A DNA stretch of 10,368 bases from an uncultured Gammaproteobacteria bacterium (GCA_964617525.1 CAZTWG010000015.1:1-10368); one strand, 5' to 3'; shown: positions 732-9,061, numbered from the stretch's first letter. Notes: generated from the letters alone by a model not told the origin. Program-made: numbers and translations.

Positions 732-2006
732 ATGGCTAATATTAACAAAGTTGACCCACAAATTGCTAAACTAATTTCTCAGGAAAAAAAAAGACAAAAG
801 AAGGGTTTAGTTTTAATTCCTTCAGAAAATTTTGTTTCAAAAGCAATATTAGAAGCACTTGGTTCAATCTGTACAAACAAATACTCAGAAGGATATCCAG
901 ATAAAAGATATTACAGTGGGAATAAATATATTGATAAAATTGAAAAAATAGCTCAAGAAAGAGCTAAAAAAATATTTAATGCCGAACATGCCAATGTTCA
1001 ACCATATTCTGGCTCTCCCGCAAATTTAGCCGTTTATTTAGCTTTAGCTAAGCCAGGAGATACCATTATGGGTATGAGTTTATCTCAGGGCGGACATTTA
1101 ACTCACGGACATAAAGTAAATATTTCAGGCAAACTTTTTAATTTTGTTCAATATGGAGTTGATAAAAAAACTCATTTGATAGATTATGACCAAATAGAAA
1201 AATTAGCAAAAAAGTATCGTCCAAAAATTATTGTTTCTGGCGCCACTGCTTACTCTAGAATTATTAAATTCAAAAAAATTCATAAAATTGCACATAAAGT
1301 AGGAGCAATTAGTATGGCTGATATATCTCATATTGCTGGATTGATTGTTGCTAAATGTCATCCAAGCCCGCTACCTTTTACTGATATTGTTACAACAACG
1401 ACACATAAAACATTAAGAGGCCCTAGAGGAGCAATCATTCTATGCAAAAAAGAATATGCGACAGACATTGATAAAATGGTTTTCCCAGGACTACAGGGCG
1501 GTCCTCATGAAAACAATATTGCAGGTATAGCTGTAGCGCTCAAAGAAGCTTCTAGAAAAAGCTTTCAAAAATATGGCGAGCAGATTATTAAAAATAGCAA
1601 AGCATTAGCTCAATCTTTAAAGGAGCAAGGATTAAATCTTATTTCTAATGGGACAGACAACCATCTCGTTTTAGTTGACTTAACTAAGGATAAAATTACT
1701 GGTAGTCAGGCAGAAAAAGTTTTAGAAAAGATGAAAATTTACGTCAACAAGAATACTATTCCCAATGACACTCATAGTCCTTTCAATCCCTCGGGGATTA
1801 GGTTGGGTACCCCAGCATTGACTACCCAAGGATTCAAAGAAAAGGAAATGAAAATAATTGGAGAACTAATCGCCCAAGTAATTCACAACGTAGATAGTCC
1901 CAAAATATTAAAACAAATCAAACAAAAAGTAAAAAAATTAATAATTTCTCATGATATTAAATGGCAAAAAAATAGCCGAACAAATCAAAAAACAATTAAA
2001 GAATAA
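732..2006 (+). CDS. glyA: Serine hydroxymethyltransferase
   Basis: Full-length SHMT-like sequence: LIPSENF, YSEGYP, SLSQGGHLTHGH, and the PLP-lysine motif TTTTHKTLRGPRG (Lys226, nt 1407-1409). The C-terminal ~20 aa overlap folD and look like an extension (see findings). Confidence 0.95.
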   Translation: MANINKVDPQIAKLISQEKKRQKKGLVLIPSENFVSKAILEALGSICTNKYSEGYPDKRYYSGNKYIDKIEKIAQERAKKIFNAEHANVQPYSGSPANLAVYLALAKPGDTIMGMSLSQGGHLTHGHKVNISGKLFNFVQYGVDKKTHLIDYDQIEKLAKKYRPKIIVSGATAYSRIIKFKKIHKIAHKVGAISMADISHIAGLIVAKCHPSPLPFTDIVTTTTHKTLRGPRGAIILCKKEYATDIDKMVFPGLQGGPHENNIAGIAVALKEASRKSFQKYGEQIIKNSKALAQSLKEQGLNLISNGTDNHLVLVDLTKDKITGSQAEKVLEKMKIYVNKNTIPNDTHSPFNPSGIRLGTPALTTQGFKEKEMKIIGELIAQVIHNVDSPKILKQIKQKVKKLIISHDIKWQKNSRTNQKTIKE

Positions 2007-3009: not shown

Positions 3010-4731
3010 ATGGCTTTTAAAAAAAGAATTCTTAAGCTACATTCTCAAAAAACAAAAAGCATTCCCTCTTTTAAGCAGTTAAAATACATTAAACACCTTT
3101 TAGATAAAAGAGAAAGAAAAATAATCTTTTATTTATTTTGGTTGAGTTTAATTTCTTTGCTTGGACTACTTTTCTCTCTTTATTTTAAAAATTCTGAGAT
3201 TAAACCATCTTACGGAGGTACATATAGCGAGGGCTTGATTGGTCAACCAAAATTTATTAATCCTATTTTAGCTAATGATGATATTGACTTGGCTATTAGT
3301 GGTCTAATTTTTTCCGGTTTATTTAAATATGATAAAAATAATGAAATACAGGCTGATTTAGCTAAAACTCTACCTTCTGATATAAACGAAAATAACAAAA
3401 CTATCTGTCTGAAACCTAATATTTTTTGGCACGACAAAGAAAGATTAACTACCGCTGACTTAATTTTTACTCTTGAATTAATCCAAAAGATAAAATCTAA
3501 ATCGCCATTGTTTGAAAAATTAAAAAATACTGAGTTTTCAGTCATTGATGACAATTGTTTTAGTTTCAAAAATGCTAAATTATCAGATTTATGCTTTGGA
3601 ATTTTACCTAAACATATTTGGCAAACATTAGAACCAGCAAAAATAAATCAATCTATATACAACCTAAAACCAATAGGTAGTGGACCATTCCAATTTGTTT
3701 CTTTGACAAATAGCAGAGAAGATGGCATAAAAAGCTATAAATTAAAACAAAATAAAGATTATTATAATAAAATACCATATATAGAGCAAATAATTTTTAG
3801 ATTTTATCAAAACTTTACTCAAGCTACTCAGGCCTTAAAAGAAAGAAAAATTAGTGGATTAGGCAATATCCCTCAAAACTTGAAAGAAGAAGTTATTGGA
3901 CTAAAAAAAATTAGATACTATCCTCTAAGTTTACCACATTATACTGCTGCCTTTTTCAATCTAGATGACCCCTTGTTGAAAAACAAAAATATCCGCCAAG
4001 CTTTAGCTTTACTTACCCCCAAAGAAGAAATCTTGAGTGCTGTTTTGAATGGGAATGGCATTATTATGGATGGACCCCTTTTGCCTACCTCTAATTTGCT
4101 AAATCCTAATATTAAAAAATATGAATATAATCCTCAATCAGCACAAGAAATTCTGAAAAAAGCAGGATGGGAAAACAAAGAAAATGGATTTTTAGAAAAA
4201 AACGGAGATATTCTAGAGCTAAGTTTGACTACTATTGAAGAAACTGATTTTAATAAGATTGCGACTTTATTACAACAATCTTGGCAAAATGCAGGCATTA
4301 AAATAAAGCTAATATCAATCCCAGCAGAACAAATACAAGAAGTTATAAAAACTCGTAATTTTAAAATATTCTTATACGGAATATTACCCAAAACTGATTT
4401 TAATCCATATTTCTTCTGGCACTCTTCTCAAAAAAATTTTCCTGGTTTGAATCTAACTGGGTTTAACAATCGAAGGGTTGATGAATTGCTAGAAAAAGCT
4501 TATTATCTAAACGATGATGAAACAAAAGAAAAATATTATGACGAATTTCAAGAAATTATAGCAGCTAATATTCCAGCTATATTCTTATATACCACCAATT
4601 ACGACTACTTTATAAACAAAAAAATAAAAGGAATAAGCATTTCCCAAATTGACCATCCTAAGGATAGATTTAGAGACATTGAAAATTGGTATACAAGAAC
4701 CTCTCGTCACTTCGTTCCTCGAGAACCTTGA
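3010..4731 (+). CDS. ABC-transporter family-5 (peptide/nickel, OppA/DppA-like) solute-binding protein with N-terminal TM anchor
   Basis: 573 aa. Basic N-terminus, then the hydrophobic helix IIFYLFWLSLISLLGLLFSLYF, then a family-5 SBP-like body (YSEGLIGQPKFINPILA, WHD, GSGPF, the PHYTAAFFNLD region, LYG...P, ending ENWY). No lipobox Cys. No permease or ATPase genes in the window. Confidence 0.75.
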   Translation: MAFKKRILKLHSQKTKSIPSFKQLKYIKHLLDKRERKIIFYLFWLSLISLLGLLFSLYFKNSEIKPSYGGTYSEGLIGQPKFINPILANDDIDLAISGLIFSGLFKYDKNNEIQADLAKTLPSDINENNKTICLKPNIFWHDKERLTTADLIFTLELIQKIKSKSPLFEKLKNTEFSVIDDNCFSFKNAKLSDLCFGILPKHIWQTLEPAKINQSIYNLKPIGSGPFQFVSLTNSREDGIKSYKLKQNKDYYNKIPYIEQIIFRFYQNFTQATQALKERKISGLGNIPQNLKEEVIGLKKIRYYPLSLPHYTAAFFNLDDPLLKNKNIRQALALLTPKEEILSAVLNGNGIIMDGPLLPTSNLLNPNIKKYEYNPQSAQEILKKAGWENKENGFLEKNGDILELSLTTIEETDFNKIATLLQQSWQNAGIKIKLISIPAEQIQEVIKTRNFKIFLYGILPKTDFNPYFFWHSSQKNFPGLNLTGFNNRRVDELLEKAYYLNDDETKEKYYDEFQEIIAANIPAIFLYTTNYDYFINKKIKGISISQIDHPKDRFRDIENWYTRTSRHFVPREP

Positions 4732-4979: not shown

Positions 4980-5963
4980 ATAAAATTATTTAGTGGCATC
5001 CAGCCAACAGGCATACTTCATATTGGCAACTATTTTGGAACCATCAAAAATTGGGTTAAACTACAAAAAAAATACGATAGCATTTTTTGTGTTGTTGACT
5101 ACCACTCCTTAACTGAGACAATTGATCCTAAAGAATTATCAAAACAAACCTTAGATATGGCTATGGATTTAATGGCTTGCGGGATTGACCCTGTTAAATC
5201 AACTCTTTTTGTCCAATCATCTGTTCCTGAACATACAGAATTAACATGGATATTAAGTTCTTTTACTCCTTTAGCTGAATTGCAACGCATGACTCAATTT
5301 AAAGAAAAATCTCAAAAAAACACTAAAAATATTAATGCTGGACTACTATATTACCCAATTTTAATGGCAGCTGATATTTTGCTTTATAAAGCAGAAATGG
5401 TTCCCGTCGGACATGACCAATTACAACATCTTGAGATAGCTCGTACTATTGCTCGTAAATTCAATAAAAAGCTAGGGAAAACCTTCCCTGAACCAAAGAG
5501 TCTTCTAGCGCCTAACCCCAGAATAATGAGCTTAATAAATCCTAAAGAAAAAATGAGTAAAAGTGGAAGTATAAATAGCTTTATTGCTTTATCTGACTCT
5601 TTGGCAACTATTGAGAAAAAGCTTGCTAGCGCTATGACCGACCCAGCCAGAAAAAGACTTACCGACAAAGGGACACCAGCTAAATGTAATCTTTACAAAT
5701 TACACAAACTTGTTTCCGATGTTTCTGATTTAAGATATGTAGAAAAAGGATGCAATCAGGCTAAAATTGGATGCTTAGAATGCAAAAAACTATTAGCTAA
5801 AAATATATTTAAAGAATTAGAACCAATCCAACAGAGAAAAAGAAAATTAGAGAAAAATCCCGAGAAGATAAAAAAAATACTCCGAAACGGAGCTTTGAGG
5901 GCGCAAAAGATCGCTAGAGAGAATATGAAAGAAATTAAGAAAAAAATTGGATTATTCTCTTAA
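4962..5963 (+). CDS. trpS: Tryptophan--tRNA ligase
   Basis: FSGIQPTGILHIGNY (HIGN, nt 5019-5030), PILMAADILLY, VPVGHDQLQH, KMSKS (nt 5550-5564). Size (333 aa) is typical for bacterial TrpRS. Carries a four-Cys motif (C242, C264, C271, C274). Confidence 0.95.
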   Translation: MRISNEIKLFSGIQPTGILHIGNYFGTIKNWVKLQKKYDSIFCVVDYHSLTETIDPKELSKQTLDMAMDLMACGIDPVKSTLFVQSSVPEHTELTWILSSFTPLAELQRMTQFKEKSQKNTKNINAGLLYYPILMAADILLYKAEMVPVGHDQLQHLEIARTIARKFNKKLGKTFPEPKSLLAPNPRIMSLINPKEKMSKSGSINSFIALSDSLATIEKKLASAMTDPARKRLTDKGTPAKCNLYKLHKLVSDVSDLRYVEKGCNQAKIGCLECKKLLAKNIFKELEPIQQRKRKLEKNPEKIKKILRNGALRAQKIARENMKEIKKKIGLFS

Positions 5964-6730
5964 TTTTTCTTTAATTCTATTTTTGACCCAAACCACTTCC
6001 TAGATAAATATTTAGTTTGATTGTTTATGTCAGAAGCAAAAAATTGACTAAGAGACCCTTTTGAAAGGTTCTCTTTTATCTTTGGGTTATTTTCTAAAAA
6101 TTCATGTAAATAAGAATCAATGATATCGATTGGGCTAATGATTTTAACCTGTTTACCAATTTTAATCTGGATTATATCCGCCAATAAAGAATAAATTGGA
6201 CTTGTTAACACAAGGGTATCTATCCGTTTGCAATGTAAATTGTAGAGATAAGATTTTAATATCTTTTTAGTAACAGCTTTTTTAAGCCAGCTTTCTCTAA
6301 TTAATGGCCGGAGTAAGGGAGTGAATTTAATTAAAATTTTAACATTTTTATCAATTTGATTAACAATTTTAGATATAAAATTATAATCAATAACTACGCT
6401 AGAAGTGATCACCCCTATTCTCTTATTCTTGCTCCCTTTAACCGCTGAATCAATTAACCAATCTATAAGAGATATTACAGGGACCTTAGTTTTGATATCC
6501 TTTAATGCAACGGCCATAGATGGGTCAGAGACAATAATCATTTTGGCACCTCTCCCAATCAAAAAATCAATTCCTTGTTCAGCGCATTTCCTGATAGTCC
6601 CCTCACCTTTATTGTCAAAAGGACCTCTTGCCGTGTCGGCAAAATATAAAATCTGATACTCTGGAAATTTATTTATTATTTCCTTAGTTAAGATTAAACC
6701 ACCTAAATTTGAATCTAAAATGCCAATCAT
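5960..6730 (-). CDS. Glutamate racemase homolog (MurI-like, Asp/Glu racemase fold) lacking both canonical catalytic cysteines
   Basis: MIGILDSNLGGL..YFADTARGPF.. is collinear with MurI (IGVFDSGVGGL, GDTARxPYG). The ACNTA motif position reads VSDPS (aa 67-71, nt 6518-6532). The GCTHYP position reads TSPIYS (aa 176-181; Ser177 at nt 6200-6202). Its start overlaps the upstream methyltransferase stop (ATGA, 6727-6730). Confidence 0.7.
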   Translation of the reverse strand: MIGILDSNLGGLILTKEIINKFPEYQILYFADTARGPFDNKGEGTIRKCAEQGIDFLIGRGAKMIIVSDPSMAVALKDIKTKVPVISLIDWLIDSAVKGSKNKRIGVITSSVVIDYNFISKIVNQIDKNVKILIKFTPLLRPLIRESWLKKAVTKKILKSYLYNLHCKRIDTLVLTSPIYSLLADIIQIKIGKQVKIISPIDIIDSYLHEFLENNPKIKENLSKGSLSQFFASDINNQTKYLSRKWFGSKIELKKN

Positions 6731-7404
6731 ACCTTTTGAGCAATAGTTATTAAGTTAAATCCCCTTAAAGGGTCTTTCCTATTTTTAATAATTCTAAAAC
6801 CTGCACCCTTTACCAATTTTTTAATTTCTCTAAGAGTAAAAACGTGATGATAGCGCAATATTTCCTTTTCTCTTATTTTCCACGGAATAAACACGTTACG
6901 TTGCCCCAAGAACAAAGAATAAAGATGATAACGTAAAATCAATTTCCATTGCATAAGATTCCAAACAGTAAAAATCAAAAAACCATTTGGTTTCAAAATA
7001 GAAAAACAATCTTTTAAAATCTTGAGTTGTAATTTTTTTGATGGAATATGATGCAAAAAAGCAATTGAGAATATAACATCAAACTCATTTCTTGAAAACT
7101 GAGTCCCTAGGTCTAAAGCATCAGATACAATAAATTTAGGTTTATTAAATCGTTCTCTTGCCGCTTCAATCAGTTTTTCACTATTATCAATGCCAATATA
7201 TTCTACCTTTTTGCCTTTAAAAAGCTGGTACAATCGTCCATTACCACATCCTAAGTCTAACACTTTTTGATTATTTTTAATATATTTTGATAAAAATTCT
7301 AACTCACGCCAGTTCCATTTTCTAGTTTTTGCGAATTCCCCAGCAATGGCATCCCAATTCTCTTTATTTTGTTTAAGAATCTTTTCAACTCTTTTTTTAT
7401 TCAT
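6727..7404 (-). CDS. Class I SAM-dependent methyltransferase, Trm9/ALKBH8-like (candidate tRNA cm5U34 methyl-esterifying enzyme)
   Basis: SAM motif I VLDLGCGNG (nt 7237-7263). Additional blocks match, from memory, the conserved Trm9/ALKBH8 methyltransferase blocks: WDAIAGEFAKTRKWNW, SDALDL, FDVIFSIAFLHH, LKPNGFLIFTVWNLMQ, NVFIPW, LRYHHVF, LITIAQK. The methyltransferase call is firm. The Trm9 subfamily call needs a profile search. Confidence 0.85.
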   Translation of the reverse strand: MNKKRVEKILKQNKENWDAIAGEFAKTRKWNWRELEFLSKYIKNNQKVLDLGCGNGRLYQLFKGKKVEYIGIDNSEKLIEAARERFNKPKFIVSDALDLGTQFSRNEFDVIFSIAFLHHIPSKKLQLKILKDCFSILKPNGFLIFTVWNLMQWKLILRYHLYSLFLGQRNVFIPWKIREKEILRYHHVFTLREIKKLVKGAGFRIIKNRKDPLRGFNLITIAQKV

Positions 7405-7410
7405 AACTAT

Positions 7411-7468
7411 ATCTTATCAGAAATATAAGAGTCAGCAAGATTGAATATTTATATAAAACTGATAAGAT
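7411..7468. promoter_or_regulatory. Back-to-back divergent promoters (methyltransferase/murI-like leftward, elp3 rightward) built on a 10-nt perfect inverted repeat
   Basis: ATCTTATCAG (7411-7420) and CTGATAAGAT (7459-7468) are exact reverse complements. Each reads outward as an extended -10, TGaTAAGAT. Candidate -35s are TTGCTG (- strand, 7433-7438) and TTGAAT (+ strand, 7441-7446), each with a 16-nt spacer. The -10s end 7 nt (methyltransferase) and 10 nt (elp3) from the respective ATG. No SD on either side. Confidence 0.45.
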
Positions 7469-7477
7469 AAGATTATC

Positions 7478-9061
7478 ATGAAAAAAGAAATAGAAGAAAA
7501 AAAAATAAAAATAGTTCAGGAAATGGCAAAGAATAAAATAACTTCTGAGGAAGAATTTGGGGAAGTTAAACAAAAAACAATCGCCAAAATCAAAACAAAC
7601 TTCCCTCCAAACAACGAACTATTGATGATATATAAAAAATTACGAAAACAAAATAATGTTCGTGCTAACTTTTATTTTGAAAAATTATTGAAAAAACGAC
7701 CAATACGTAGTTTGTCTGGCGTGGCAGTTGTCGCTGTGCTTACTAAACCATGGCCATGCCCTGGCAAATGCATTTATTGCCCCACAGAGAAGAATATTCC
7801 CCAAAGTTACCTATCAGGTGAACCAGCGGTAGAAAGGGCTAAAATCTTGAATTATGACCCTTATTTGCAAACTAAAAAAAGGATTGAAATGTTAGAAAAG
7901 AATGGTCATCCAACTGACAAAATTGAATTAATTGTTATTGGCGGGACATGGAGTTATCTCCCTAAACATTATCAAACATGGTTTATCAAAAGATGTTTTG
8001 ACGGAGCTAATAAAAAAATATCCAAAACTTTATTTGAAGCTCAAAAGAAAAATGAAAAAGCCAAGAACCGTTTAATAGGGATTACCCTAGAGACAAGACC
8101 AGATTATATTACTCTTAAAGAAATTTTAAGAATGAGAAAACTAGGATGCACTAGGGTAGAAATAGGAGTACAAATAGTTGATGACGAGATATTAAAAATA
8201 AATCAACGTGGCCACTTAATTGACAAAACAATTGAAGCAACGAAACTACTTAAAAACGCTGGTTTTAAAATATGTTATCATATTATGCCTGGACTTTATG
8301 GCTCAAACCCTAAAAAAGATTTAGAAAAATTCAAAAAACTTTTTTCTGATTCTGACTTTCAACCCGATATGTTAAAAATATATCCCTGTGTTGTTACCAA
8401 AGGTTCAAAATTATCTGAACTATATAAACAAAAGAAATATAAACCATATACCGATAACCAATTAATAAATCTACTCATTAAGATGAAATCAGTTGTTCCG
8501 CCTTATGTACGCATTAACCGAGTTATACGCGATATCCCCTCTTGGCAAATTCAAGGTGGAAGCAAAATCTCAAACATGCGTCAATATATACAGATAGAAA
8601 TGAAAAAACAAAAATTAGAATGCCAATGTATTCGTTGCAGAGAGATTAAAGCAAGTCAACTAGAATTAAAAGATTTAAAATTAAAACACCAGCATTACAC
8701 AGCATCGCACGGTCAAGCAATTTTTTTGTCATTTGAATCGCAAAAACAAAACAAGTTAGCTGCTTTCCTTCGTCTTAGGTTACCAACTCTAGAAATAAAA
8801 AAACAACCTCGTGTTTTAAAAAATAGTGCGATTATTCGTGAAATACATACCTATGGACAACTCGTTTCAATTAATCAAAAAAACAGAAAAGCAACTCAAC
8901 ATATTGGTTTAGGGAAGAAGCTAATCAAAGAAGCAGAAAAAATCAGCCGAAAAGCTGGATATAAAAAAATAGCCATTATCGCTGGCATCGGGGTTCGTCC
9001 ATATTACCGCAAACTTGGCTATCGCCTTCAAAATACTTATATGACTAAAATATTATCCTAA
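7478..9061 (+). CDS. elp3: Elp3-family radical SAM / GNAT acetyltransferase (tRNA uridine-34 carboxymethylation enzyme homolog)
   Basis: RPIRSLSGVAVVAVLTKPWPCPGKCIYCP carries the CxxxCxxC radical-SAM cluster (C94, C98, C101; nt 7757-7780). Also GGTWSYLP, TLETRPDYI, GCTRVEIGVQ, KIYPC. The C-terminal GNAT block is IREIHTYG...QHIGLGKKLIKEAEKISRKAGYKKIAIIAGIGVRPYYRKLGY. The 527 aa length and domain order match Elp3. Confidence 0.9.
   Translation: MKKEIEEKKIKIVQEMAKNKITSEEEFGEVKQKTIAKIKTNFPPNNELLMIYKKLRKQNNVRANFYFEKLLKKRPIRSLSGVAVVAVLTKPWPCPGKCIYCPTEKNIPQSYLSGEPAVERAKILNYDPYLQTKKRIEMLEKNGHPTDKIELIVIGGTWSYLPKHYQTWFIKRCFDGANKKISKTLFEAQKKNEKAKNRLIGITLETRPDYITLKEILRMRKLGCTRVEIGVQIVDDEILKINQRGHLIDKTIEATKLLKNAGFKICYHIMPGLYGSNPKKDLEKFKKLFSDSDFQPDMLKIYPCVVTKGSKLSELYKQKKYKPYTDNQLINLLIKMKSVVPPYVRINRVIRDIPSWQIQGGSKISNMRQYIQIEMKKQKLECQCIRCREIKASQLELKDLKLKHQHYTASHGQAIFLSFESQKQNKLAAFLRLRLPTLEIKKQPRVLKNSAIIREIHTYGQLVSINQKNRKATQHIGLGKKLIKEAEKISRKAGYKKIAIIAGIGVRPYYRKLGYRLQNTYMTKILS

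Follow-up and report, generated by a model that had tools for sequence, protein, structure and literature searches.

The window, by which we mean the whole 10,368-nucleotide stretch of DNA that was analysed, belongs to a tiny uncultured (CPR/Patescibacteria) bacterium and carries a gene for Elp3 that faces away from a gene for a Trm9-like methyltransferase, with a short intergenic region between the two and a third gene, for a MurI homologue, on the methyltransferase side (Table 1). An earlier reading, made from the sequence alone, had called two divergent genes, a methyltransferase of 225 aa and a full-length Elp3, with 73 nt between them, and its coordinates proved to be exact. Its interpretation is supported as well, since every one of its proposed checks that we ran spoke for it.

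Table 1. Features of the Elp3–methyltransferase locus, with positions counted from the first nucleotide of the window
Feature	Position	Strand	Basis or reading
Elp3, radical-SAM and GNAT/KAT enzyme, 527 aa	7478–9061	+	TIGR01211, Pfam and PDB matches
Trm9-like class I SAM methyltransferase, 225 aa	6727–7404	−	PDB and Foldseek matches, Trm9 residues, Elp3 adjacency
Divergent intergenic region, 73 nt	7405–7477	.	read as two putative back-to-back promoters of identical geometry
Inverted repeat, left arm TATCTTATCAG	7410–7420	−	minus strand reads CTGATAAGATA; extended −10-like TGnTAAGAT, hexamer 7416–7411
Inverted repeat, right arm CTGATAAGATA	7459–7469	+	extended −10-like TGnTAAGAT, hexamer 7463–7468
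−35-like box CAGCAA (TTGCTG on the minus strand), for the methyltransferase	7433–7438	−	read from sequence
−35-like box TTGAAT, for Elp3	7441–7446	+	read from sequence
MurI (glutamate racemase) homologue	5960–6730	−	PDB 1B73 at E 1e-24

The identity of the plus-strand gene is easily settled: it is an Elp3. It scores 572.3 bits against the NCBIfam model TIGR01211 (cutoff 350), with residues 12–525 covering model positions 2–521 of 522, and it matches the Pfam families Radical_SAM (8e-20) and Radical_SAM_C (3e-21), with weak matches to the GNAT families (1.6e-3), while in the PDB it finds the Elp3 proteins of M. infernus (6IA8, E 4e-138) and D. mccartyi (5L7J, E 8e-120). The cluster motif CPGKCIYC (C94, C98 and C101) is the same as that of the Dehalococcoides enzyme to which it was aligned, and the alignment also brings out motifs for zinc (CxCxxC) and acetyl-CoA (QHxGxG). 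Indeed, REIHxYG, QHxGxG and YYrkLGY all align with 5L7J and 6IA8, as expected of a C-terminal KAT/GNAT acetyl-CoA pocket, and K148 and K264 are in the same alignment the equivalents of K77 and K193, which have been named as acetyl-CoA pocket residues in Dmc Elp3 (PMC6367351). The full-length Elp3 with a radical-SAM cluster and a C-terminal GNAT domain that had been claimed for this strand is thereby borne out, and we predict that it makes cm5U34 on tRNA. Set beside DmcElp3, the characterised bacterial Elp3, the window's protein has the same CPGKCIYC and a zinc site as well, but it also has a basic N-terminal extension of ~70 residues, which is missing from DmcElp3, and its score against the archaeal M. 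infernus Elp3 exceeds that against DmcElp3 (464 vs 404 bits).

The minus-strand gene calls for more care. Generic libraries see in it only a methyltransferase (Methyltransf_11, 23 and 25 in Pfam), and because neither Pfam nor NCBIfam holds any Trm9 model, it has passed no curated Trm9 threshold. Nor does it join any NCBIfam equivalog family, UbiE, UbiG and BioC included, since all scores fall far under their cutoffs (CpaM 63.8 vs 180; UbiG 52.3 vs 103; UbiE/MenG 45.6 vs 158; BioC 45.4 vs 185; CmoB 30.1 vs 209). Its best PDB match is Yarrowia Trm9, to which it is ~23% identical (5CM2 chain Z; phmmer 1.1e-15, residues 25–208), a profile of 66 family sequences again puts 5CM2_Z at the top (3.8e-26), and Foldseek, given an AF2 model with a pLDDT of 93, ranks the same chain first in the PDB (E 2.6e-17, TMt 0.83). 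The lead over the next PDB matches is small, at 95 vs 83 bits (12 bits), and roughly tenfold in Foldseek, where the runner-up has E 3.5e-16; compared within the PDB, then, the protein is closer to Trm9 than to other characterised methyltransferases, by a small margin. The model shows the seven-strand, Rossmann-like sheet of the class I SAM-methyltransferase fold, together with a two-strand lid (170–177 and 180–187) that comes after the strand at 137–148 and before the helix at 191–201. YlTrm9 has a two-stranded antiparallel lid (betaA–betaB) between beta5 and alphaE (PMC4678810), and the lid in our model likewise sits after beta5. In the reverse direction, Yarrowia Trm9 searched against all 3924 ORFs of 81 loci gives 78 matches, all of them in the Elp3-linked cluster. 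Profiles of the CPR family and of the TACK-archaeal family score about equally against it (94 and 90 bits), and a Chloroflexota branch is weakly similar (49 bits).

Then there is the active site. The blocks that the sequence-only reading had picked out as Trm9/ALKBH8-like (TRxxxW, DxGCGNG, SIAxxHH, VWxxxQ, VxxPW and RYxH) do align with 5CM2_Z over residues 25–208, and in a proper alignment of 79 family members the Trm9-specific residues are present and nearly invariant. Eight residues are essential in yeast Trm9 by mutagenesis, namely R29, D72, H116, W145, W168, R241, Y243 and N271 (PMC4678810), and the first six are identical here, as R28, D73, H119, W148, W175 and R184, with yeast H115 corresponding to H118. 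A seventh is probably supplied by N217, which is placed opposite N271 by the multiple alignment only, outside the HMM alignment, and which is Asn in 54 of the 79 members. The place of Y243 is taken by H186, beside Y185, at a position that varies across the family (Y in 30 of 79, V in 22, F in 7, and others). Conservation elsewhere is high, with R28 kept in 77 members, H118 and H119 in 77 and 76, W148 in 78, W175 in 68 (and F or Y in nine more) and R184 in 72, while D50-x-G-C-G-N-G and D73 (ScTrm9 D72) are invariant and RY is nearly so. The Trm9 catalytic residues are, by alignment, missing from the runner-up PDB matches 3SM3, 1VE3 and 3L8D. These comparisons show the homology to Trm9 and the conserved active site, and we read the methyltransferase as a probable Trm9 orthologue.

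Its pairing with Elp3 is conserved. Among 80 genome loci with a relative of the methyltransferase, 63 have a divergent Elp3 upstream (~60 directly abutting) and three more have Elp3 in another arrangement; at the other 14 no Elp3 was seen, four of these being too short to tell, and at 11 loci with enough flank none was found within 10 kb. Looked at from the Elp3 side, 30 metagenome loci carry an Elp3 that shares 50% identity or more with that of the window; the methyltransferase is present in 23 of them, and in the remaining seven the sequence upstream runs to no more than 1.7 kb. The divergent pair is found in many CPR lineages, in Anaerolineae/Chloroflexota and in Fermentibacteria, in TACK archaea (Methanomethylicia, Crenarchaeota) the two genes form an operon on one strand, and adjacency holds down to 26% identity, across phyla and domains. 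The bacterial Trm9 family comes to at least 309 clusters (50% identity, E up to 1e-30), and the separate Chloroflexota branch to more than 1600 proteins. Adjacency kept to this extent argues that the methyltransferase is functionally coupled to Elp3.

The 73 nt between the two genes may well hold their shared control. The inverted repeat that had been described there as 10 nt long is real and perfect, although it is one base longer, at 11 nt; the −10-like element in its left arm ends 6 nt before the methyltransferase ATG and that in its right arm 9 nt before the Elp3 ATG, and of 5000 shuffles that preserved the composition of the region, 6 gave a perfect repeat of at least 11 nt. Each −35-like box lies 16 nt from its own −10 box, and the two −35-like boxes are adjacent. 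The region is 73–86% identical to that of four relatives, compared with 61–69% at the third-codon positions of the methyltransferase, its central GCAAGATTGAATATTT is invariant in eight sequences, and the −35-like columns vary little or not at all in the alignment of relatives (TTGCCG in two of them). Outside the window a perfect repeat occurs in just one relative, where it is a 9-mer; the arms of the others keep the TGnTAnnAT pattern only, which is retained in all eight aligned relatives. The boxes are weak, with four of six consensus matches in each hexamer, a generic promoter scan does not rise above shuffles (12 sites vs 10.9), and neither ATG is preceded by a Shine–Dalgarno sequence. From this layout we infer two back-to-back promoters of identical geometry, and the inverted repeat may serve to co-regulate the pair.

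The reading that we favour, and to which we would give roughly three chances in four, is that the pair forms a bacterial Elp3/Trm9 wobble-uridine pathway with a shared, compact control region. Elp3 would use its radical-SAM cluster and acetyl-CoA to turn U34 of some tRNAs into cm5U34 by placing a carboxymethyl group on its C5, and the methyltransferase would then pass the methyl group of SAM to the carboxylate, so that mcm5U34 results. If the active-site model of Trm9 carries over, R28 and H119 would position the carboxylate, H118 and N217 would recognise the uracil, and the two tryptophans, W148 and W175, would stack on bases. The control region would provide two mirror-image extended −10 promoters, with mRNAs that are probably leaderless or nearly so, and the methyltransferase would act without a Trm112 partner.

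On this last point the most durable of the rival explanations takes a different line, accepting the chemistry (cm5U to mcm5U) but holding that a Trm112-type zinc-knuckle activator is needed and is encoded elsewhere in the genome. Trm112 is, after all, needed in yeast (PMC4678810) and, in vivo, in H. volcanii (PMC6144793), the short bacterial Trm112 orthologues whose partners are unknown (PMC5372719) would fit a distant activator, and the beta3-strand interface positions I92/V93, along with F108, are still hydrophobic in our protein. However, the hydrophobic patch between YlTrm9 and Trm112 (V59, F78, V102, A110, P112 and F116; PMC4678810) has as its equivalents K47, E68, I92, G100, S104 and F108, which means that charged residues stand at two of the six central positions of the hydrophobic interface, and the V59 and F78 positions are polar across the family (K/R/S and D/E/S/T/N/K). 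Moreover, no recurrent Trm112-like ORF was found in 80 loci up to 6 kb from the pair, with ~20 kb per genome covered, and the cysteine-rich small ORFs near the pair have no Trm112 Pfam match. We therefore regard a distant activator as unlikely, albeit a serious contender, and because the interface residues are polar we think that the methyltransferase possibly works without Trm112.

Less probable still is a methyltransferase that does pair with Elp3 and yet yields an end product other than mcm5U, by acting on a different side-chain atom or elsewhere in the tRNA. The variable Y243 position would suit such an enzyme, as would the weak likeness of the Chloroflexota branch to Yarrowia Trm9 and the diverse fates of archaeal cm5U, which include ncm5U and unknown derivatives (PMC6144793). 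Against this, the R28/H119 carboxylate pair, the H118/N217 uracil readers and both stacking tryptophans are conserved, which points to the same substrate geometry and makes another product quite improbable in our eyes. As for a generic small-molecule methyltransferase (UbiE/UbiG/BioC-like) that neighbours Elp3 by chance, as the generic Pfam domains and the labels 'UbiE' or 'UbiG' given to relatives by some sources might suggest, the NCBIfam scores far below cutoff, an adjacency that persists to 26% identity across phyla and domains and the conserved Trm9-specific residues leave it only the slimmest of chances.

The Elp3/Trm9 pathway that we favour has clear counterparts among known systems. 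Eukaryotic Elongator with Trm9–Trm112 or ALKBH8–TRMT112 likewise works in two steps, with homologous catalytic proteins and the same Elp3 domain architecture. Since Elp3 works by itself in bacteria and archaea (PMC13315578), we would not expect to find Elp1, Elp2 and Elp4–6 of the eukaryotic system in this bacterium. Eukaryotic Trm9 has its fold and two-strand lid in common with the methyltransferase, but the bacterial pair stands physically head to head, the Trm112-contact positions are polar and Y243 is replaced by His. In archaea one finds, as here, a stand-alone Elp3 and a Trm9 homologue with clustered genes: the clustering was noted in 2008 for Sulfolobus solfataricus (PMC2584109), and in H. 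volcanii Trm9 (HVO_1032)–Trm112 makes mcm5U and requires cm5U (PMC6144793). The archaeal loci that we found are same-strand operons, the methyltransferase followed by Elp3 and often preceded by a gene for a 66-aa zinc ribbon, whereas in the bacterial loci a divergent arrangement is the rule, with few exceptions. The host of the window is, besides, a bacterium, and one that has a dcw gene cluster for peptidoglycan. The xm5 group on the wobble uridine is usually treated as a marker of domain: bacteria make it with MnmE/MnmG, eukaryotes and some archaea with Elp3, to which Trm9 adds the step to the methyl ester. The MnmE–MnmG pathway, with or without MnmC, targets the C5 side chain of U34 as well, but it does so by GTPase/FAD-dependent aminomethylation, with enzymes and chemistry unrelated to the radical-SAM carboxymethylation proposed here. 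Methyl esterification of a wobble-uridine carboxylate is also carried out by CmoM, which converts cmo5U to mcmo5U, and neither CmoM nor SmtA appears as a chain name in the 51 PDB matches of the methyltransferase (E up to 1e-3).

How new, then, is all of this? The claim that a bacterial Elp3–Trm9 module had gone undescribed holds in part. No bacterial Trm9 is described in the literature that we searched, the DmcElp3 papers that we read mention Trm9 only as a eukaryotic enzyme and describe no bacterial partner methyltransferase, and a 2017 review placed Trm9 orthologues only in Sulfolobales and Halobacteriales, with none in bacteria, and found no bacterial homologues detectable for the methyltransferases that partner Trm112 (PMC5372719). 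On the other hand, clustering of the two genes was already known in Sulfolobus, and automatic annotation at IMG/JGI already gives the name 'TRM9' to many of the bacterial proteins described here. The novelty lies in the bacterial setting and not in the Elp3–Trm9 module, which was already known.

From a large bacterial Trm9 family so closely linked to Elp3 one would predict the presence of mcm5U in the tRNA of bacteria, and the family offers the much-studied bacterial Elp3 both a partner and a likely end product. If independence of Trm112 is true, a naturally Trm112-free Trm9 would be useful for structural and mechanistic work, and the Elp3–Trm9 pair adds to the archaeal-/eukaryote-like translation features of CPR bacteria. 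One might go further and suppose that in CPR and Anaerolineae Elp3 with a Trm112-independent Trm9 would be the main xm5U34 route, mcm5 replacing the (c)mnm5 of MnmE/MnmG, and that the pair would have moved between CPR and DPANN/TACK archaea; this broader idea we put forward very tentatively, and judge to be rather doubtful.

Finally, the MurI homologue lies downstream of the methyltransferase gene in a shared transcription unit, with a 4-nt ATGA overlap, and by motif comparison it is without both catalytic cysteines. Only close relatives of the window have it as a neighbour, and it is not conserved as a part of the module.

We think that the window's Elp3 and its neighbouring methyltransferase are best read as the known two-step pathway, in which Elp3 would make cm5U34 and a Trm9 orthologue would methyl-esterify it to mcm5U34. 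The literature establishes cm5U34 formation by Elp3 of both archaea and bacteria, and methyl-esterification by Trm9 has been shown in yeast and H. volcanii, where the activity strictly requires cm5U (PMC6144793). The pathway and its gene clustering in an archaeon (noted for Sulfolobus in 2008; PMC2584109) are already known, as is bacterial Elp3, which is credited to 'some bacterial clades' or to 'numerous bacteria'. Since a 2017 review found no bacterial genes similar to Trm112-partner methyltransferases to be detectable, and saw archaeal Trm9 as limited to Sulfolobales and Halobacteriales (PMC5372719), what is new here is that a known system has a large set of bacterial members, whose mechanism may vary in dispensing with Trm112. 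The sequence-only reading knew of no described bacterial Elp3-Trm9 module, and our literature search likewise turned up neither a described bacterial Trm9 nor such a pair in bacteria, the known clustering being archaeal; a search for surveys of tRNA modification in the CPR found none.

Both ORFs and the 73-nt spacer between them are as originally described, and the 527-aa protein is, judged by its sequence, a full-length Elp3, matching TIGR01211 over its whole length at 572 bits (cutoff 350), and the Elp3 proteins of M. infernus (E 4e-138) and D. mccartyi (E 8e-120). The radical-SAM motif CPGKCIYC (C94/C98/C101), the acetyl-CoA pocket residues and the prokaryote-specific CxCxxC zinc motif all align. 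Its N-terminus is extended by a basic stretch of the kind typical in archaeal Elp3 and missing from the D. mccartyi enzyme.

When the 225-aa protein is set against Trm9 and other methyltransferase families, as the sequence-only reading had proposed, Trm9 comes first by sequence, by profile and by Foldseek, if by a small margin. Pfam finds generic Methyltransf_11/23/25/31 domains and nothing more specific, and every NCBIfam match lies far below its own cutoff, so that the protein is not a UbiE, UbiG, BioC or CmoB equivalog; such generic or sub-cutoff results neither support nor refute membership of Trm9. The top match among all PDB sequences is 5CM2_Z, the Yarrowia lipolytica Trm9 chain of a Trm9-Trm112 complex (E 1.1e-15), over residues 25-208 and so well past the Rossmann core, and it improves to 3.8e-26 with a profile built from 66 family members. 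The runners-up in the PDB search follow closely (3SM3 at 83 bits, 1VE3 at 81 bits), small margins being usual among class I methyltransferases. With an AlphaFold model (pLDDT 93, pTM 0.90), Foldseek also ranks 5CM2_Z first (E 2.6e-17, TM 0.83 on target), and the predicted fold has a lid of two strands following beta5, as reported for the Trm9 structure. Among the 3924 ORFs in the fetched loci, a search with Yarrowia Trm9 picks out 78 members of the methyltransferase's cluster and nothing else, and many of the family are already labelled 'TRM9' or 'alkB family protein 8' by JGI's automatic annotation.

The discriminating evidence for this putative Trm9 is the residue-level comparison. Létoquart et al. 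report R29, D72, H116, W145, W168, R241, Y243 and N271 as essential in yeast Trm9 (ScTrm9), with H115 contributing to function (PMC4678810). The Trm9-specific blocks that the sequence-only reading had matched are present in a proper alignment, and none of the HH, W, PW and RY(Y)H residues occurs at the corresponding positions of the next-best PDB matches (3SM3, 1VE3 and 3L8D).

Counterparts of functional ScTrm9 residues in the window methyltransferase and their conservation over 79 relatives
ScTrm9	Window	Conservation
R29	R28	R in 77/79
D72	D73	D in 79/79
H115/H116	H118/H119	H in 77/79 and 76/79
W145	W148	W in 78/79
W168	W175	W in 68/79, F/Y in 9/79
R241	R184	R in 72/79
Y243	H186	variable; Tyr in 30/79
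N271	N217	Asn in 54/79; position from multiple alignment only

Adjacency to Elp3, on which the sequence-only reading had set some weight, is widely conserved. The family alignment, scanned against one genome per species, gave 80 loci; Elp3 lies upstream on the opposite strand in 63, and about 60 of these abut the methyltransferase directly. The median gap is 13 nt when genes are called as the longest ORF, a method prone to placing starts too far upstream. The remaining loci include 3 with Elp3 otherwise arranged and 4 with too short an upstream sequence, and no Elp3 was found within 10 kb in 11 of the 80. The pairing holds at methyltransferase identities as low as 26%. On the metagenome side, the window Elp3 as query gave 57 loci, and a divergent methyltransferase is present in 23 of the 30 whose Elp3 is at least 50% identical to it, upstream sequence being limited to 1.7 kb or less in the other 7. 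In nine of the 23 the two genes are 0.85-3.5 kb apart, with an extra gene confirmed only in L082, a close relative of the window, where it encodes a predicted 193-aa membrane protein. In five of the more distant Elp3 loci, most of which look archaeal, the methyltransferase directly precedes Elp3 on one strand, with its closest relatives in Methanomethylicia, and a Crenarchaeota locus (L049) is alike; these agree with the clustering in Sulfolobus (PMC2584109). One Gracilibacteria genome (L025) also has both genes on one strand, 14 nt apart.

By title, the 80 loci span many CPR lineages (Parcubacteria, Saccharibacteria, Gracilibacteria, Peribacteria, Kerfeld-, Portnoy-, Kuenen- and Komeilibacteria, WWE3), Anaerolineae and other Chloroflexota, Fermentibacteria and a few archaea, and this is a spread of record titles only, because the labels of such bulk-binned assemblies may be unreliable. 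Many of the loci are titled 'Saccharibacteria', and MAGs titled 'Gammaproteobacteria' or 'Nitrosomonadaceae' (L010, L040, L043, L047, L067) carry CPR-like or Chloroflexota-like gene pairs. In an exhaustive search, the matches form 309 clusters of 50% identity at E <=1e-30, rising to 2580 at E <=1e-10, with more than 1600 proteins of the Chloroflexota branch at the latter threshold; the best 120 matches of that branch are all of Anaerolineae-type MAGs, with no named Dehalococcoides protein among them. Against Yarrowia Trm9, the family profiles score 94 bits (CPR), 90 bits (TACK archaea) and 49 bits (Chloroflexota). A DPANN bin titled Pacearchaeota (L012) holds a CPR-type methyltransferase, at 287 bits to the CPR profile, with a divergent Elp3, which hints at either CPR-DPANN inter-domain exchange or a mis-binned CPR contig. 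Four of the longer proteins from the exhaustive search (P0219, P0164, P0177, P0148), considered as informative fusions, yielded only WecG/dehydrogenase fragments or nothing and are probably gene-call artefacts.

Clustering of every ORF lying up to 6 kb from the methyltransferase, over the 80 loci, revealed no third conserved partner, be it Trm112, a 2-thiolation enzyme or an AlkB-like hydroxylase, the recurring neighbours (SLOG/LOG-like, NIF3, permease, GreA, PGM) being lineage-specific only. Small 'conserved' ORFs at -0.9 to -1.3 kb were rejected as antisense shadows of Elp3. Motif scans for MnmG, MnmE, MnmA and Trm112 found nothing credible in the 1.62 Mb of fetched loci, a null that is uninformative on genome-wide absence because these loci sample only about 2% of each genome. 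In place of V59, F78, V102, A110, P112 and F116, the central hydrophobic Trm112 contacts of Yarrowia Trm9, the window's methyltransferase has K47, E68, I92, G100, S104 and F108. Virtually the whole bacterial family is polar at positions 47 and 68, which hints at an enzyme that could act independently of Trm112, a possible difference from the known enzymes. Five archaeal, Methanomethylicia-type loci (L127, L128, L129, L132, L144) have a zinc-ribbon gene, a Trm9-like methyltransferase and Elp3 in that order on one strand. The 66-aa zinc-ribbon protein (CxxC...CxxC) has DUF5817/DUF1922-like matches below threshold and no Trm112 match, and to regard it as a partner or an electron-donor analogue (cf. 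Kti11/Dph3) is speculation.

Between the window's two genes, the perfect inverted repeat first described as 10 nt is real but measures 11 nt, a length equalled or exceeded in 6 of 5000 shuffles. Apart from the window, only L086 has a perfect repeat, a 9-mer in which both arms have changed. All 8 aligned relatives keep a mirror-image layout, in which a TGnTAnnAT element stands on either side, its end 6 nt upstream of the methyltransferase ATG and 9 nt upstream of the Elp3 ATG, around an invariant centre of adjacent -35-like boxes, TTGCTG (or TTGCCG) and TTGAAT, with 16-nt spacers. Because this layout is conserved, no Shine-Dalgarno sequence precedes either gene, and the region is 73-86% conserved against 61-69% at third-codon positions of the flanking gene, we infer two extended -10 promoters, placed back to back, whose mRNAs would be leaderless or nearly so, in support of the shared promoter region proposed in the sequence-only reading. 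The hexamers are weak, and a generic consensus scan showed no enrichment over shuffles and missed the proposed boxes, which score 8/12. The scan's alternative -10 box, TATAGT, ending 1 nt before the ATG, was rejected as fitting the mirror symmetry less well. A palindromic operator is not favoured as the source of the repeat, whose arms lie 38 nt apart and of which most relatives keep only the -10-like positions, and it draws what plausibility it has from the double change in L086. There both arms have changed together, TGATAAGAT to TGGTAAAAT on each side, and a perfect 9-nt repeat is kept; this may be chance convergence on the -10 consensus or selection for symmetry, for example at a regulator site. 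In six other relatives the two arms do not match. The proposed back-to-back promoter layout is clade-specific, since most other lineages leave only 0-50 nt between the start codons of the pair.

Coordinates of features in the window and in related loci
Feature	Locus	Position	Strand
folD longest-ORF call/glyA end overlap	window	1951-2006	
MurI (glutamate racemase) homologue	window	5960-6730	-
Methyltransferase	window	6727-7404	-
Intergenic region	window	7405-7477	
Alternative -10 box	window	7411-7406	
Repeat arms	window	7410-7420, 7459-7469	
Elp3	window	7478-9061	+
Elp3/murF 3' overlap	window	9053-9061	
CPR-type methyltransferase	L012	2150-2839	
Same-strand Elp3 and methyltransferase	L025	459-2694	
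Membrane protein gene	L082	2223-2804	
Intergenic region with changed arms	L086	2927-3000	
Zinc ribbon	L128	~3115-3315	one strand
Methyltransferase	L128	3326-4039	one strand
Elp3	L128	4076-5530	one strand

The AT-rich window (about 31% G+C) belongs to a 36.6-kb metagenome contig (ENA ERZ27248110, k141_384960) and holds glyA, folD, secG, a family-5 solute-binding protein gene, tRNA-Leu(CAG), trpS, the MurI-like gene, the methyltransferase, Elp3 and murF, followed outside the window by ftsI, ftsL, rsmH and mraZ. Its host is a bacterium with a peptidoglycan/dcw cluster, and the closest named relatives of the methyltransferase are from Parcubacteria/Patescibacteria MAGs. The MurI homologue (E 1e-24 to 1B73) is translationally coupled to the methyltransferase gene through an ATGA overlap. 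In the window and 13 close relatives (L082-L094, L102) both of its catalytic cysteine motifs are replaced, ACNTAS by S-DP(S/C)MA and GCTHYP by (T/A)(S/D)PIY, while more distant CPR loci (L019, L022, L028, L040, L043, L045) keep the canonical forms. Because the protein is still conserved (65-73% identity) despite both replacements, it has the look of a pseudo-racemase or a repurposed racemase, in a lineage retaining murF and ftsI. Among the other genes, folD as called by longest ORF runs 56 nt into the end of glyA, so that its true start probably lies further downstream, and Elp3 shares its last 9 nt with the 3' end of the convergent murF.
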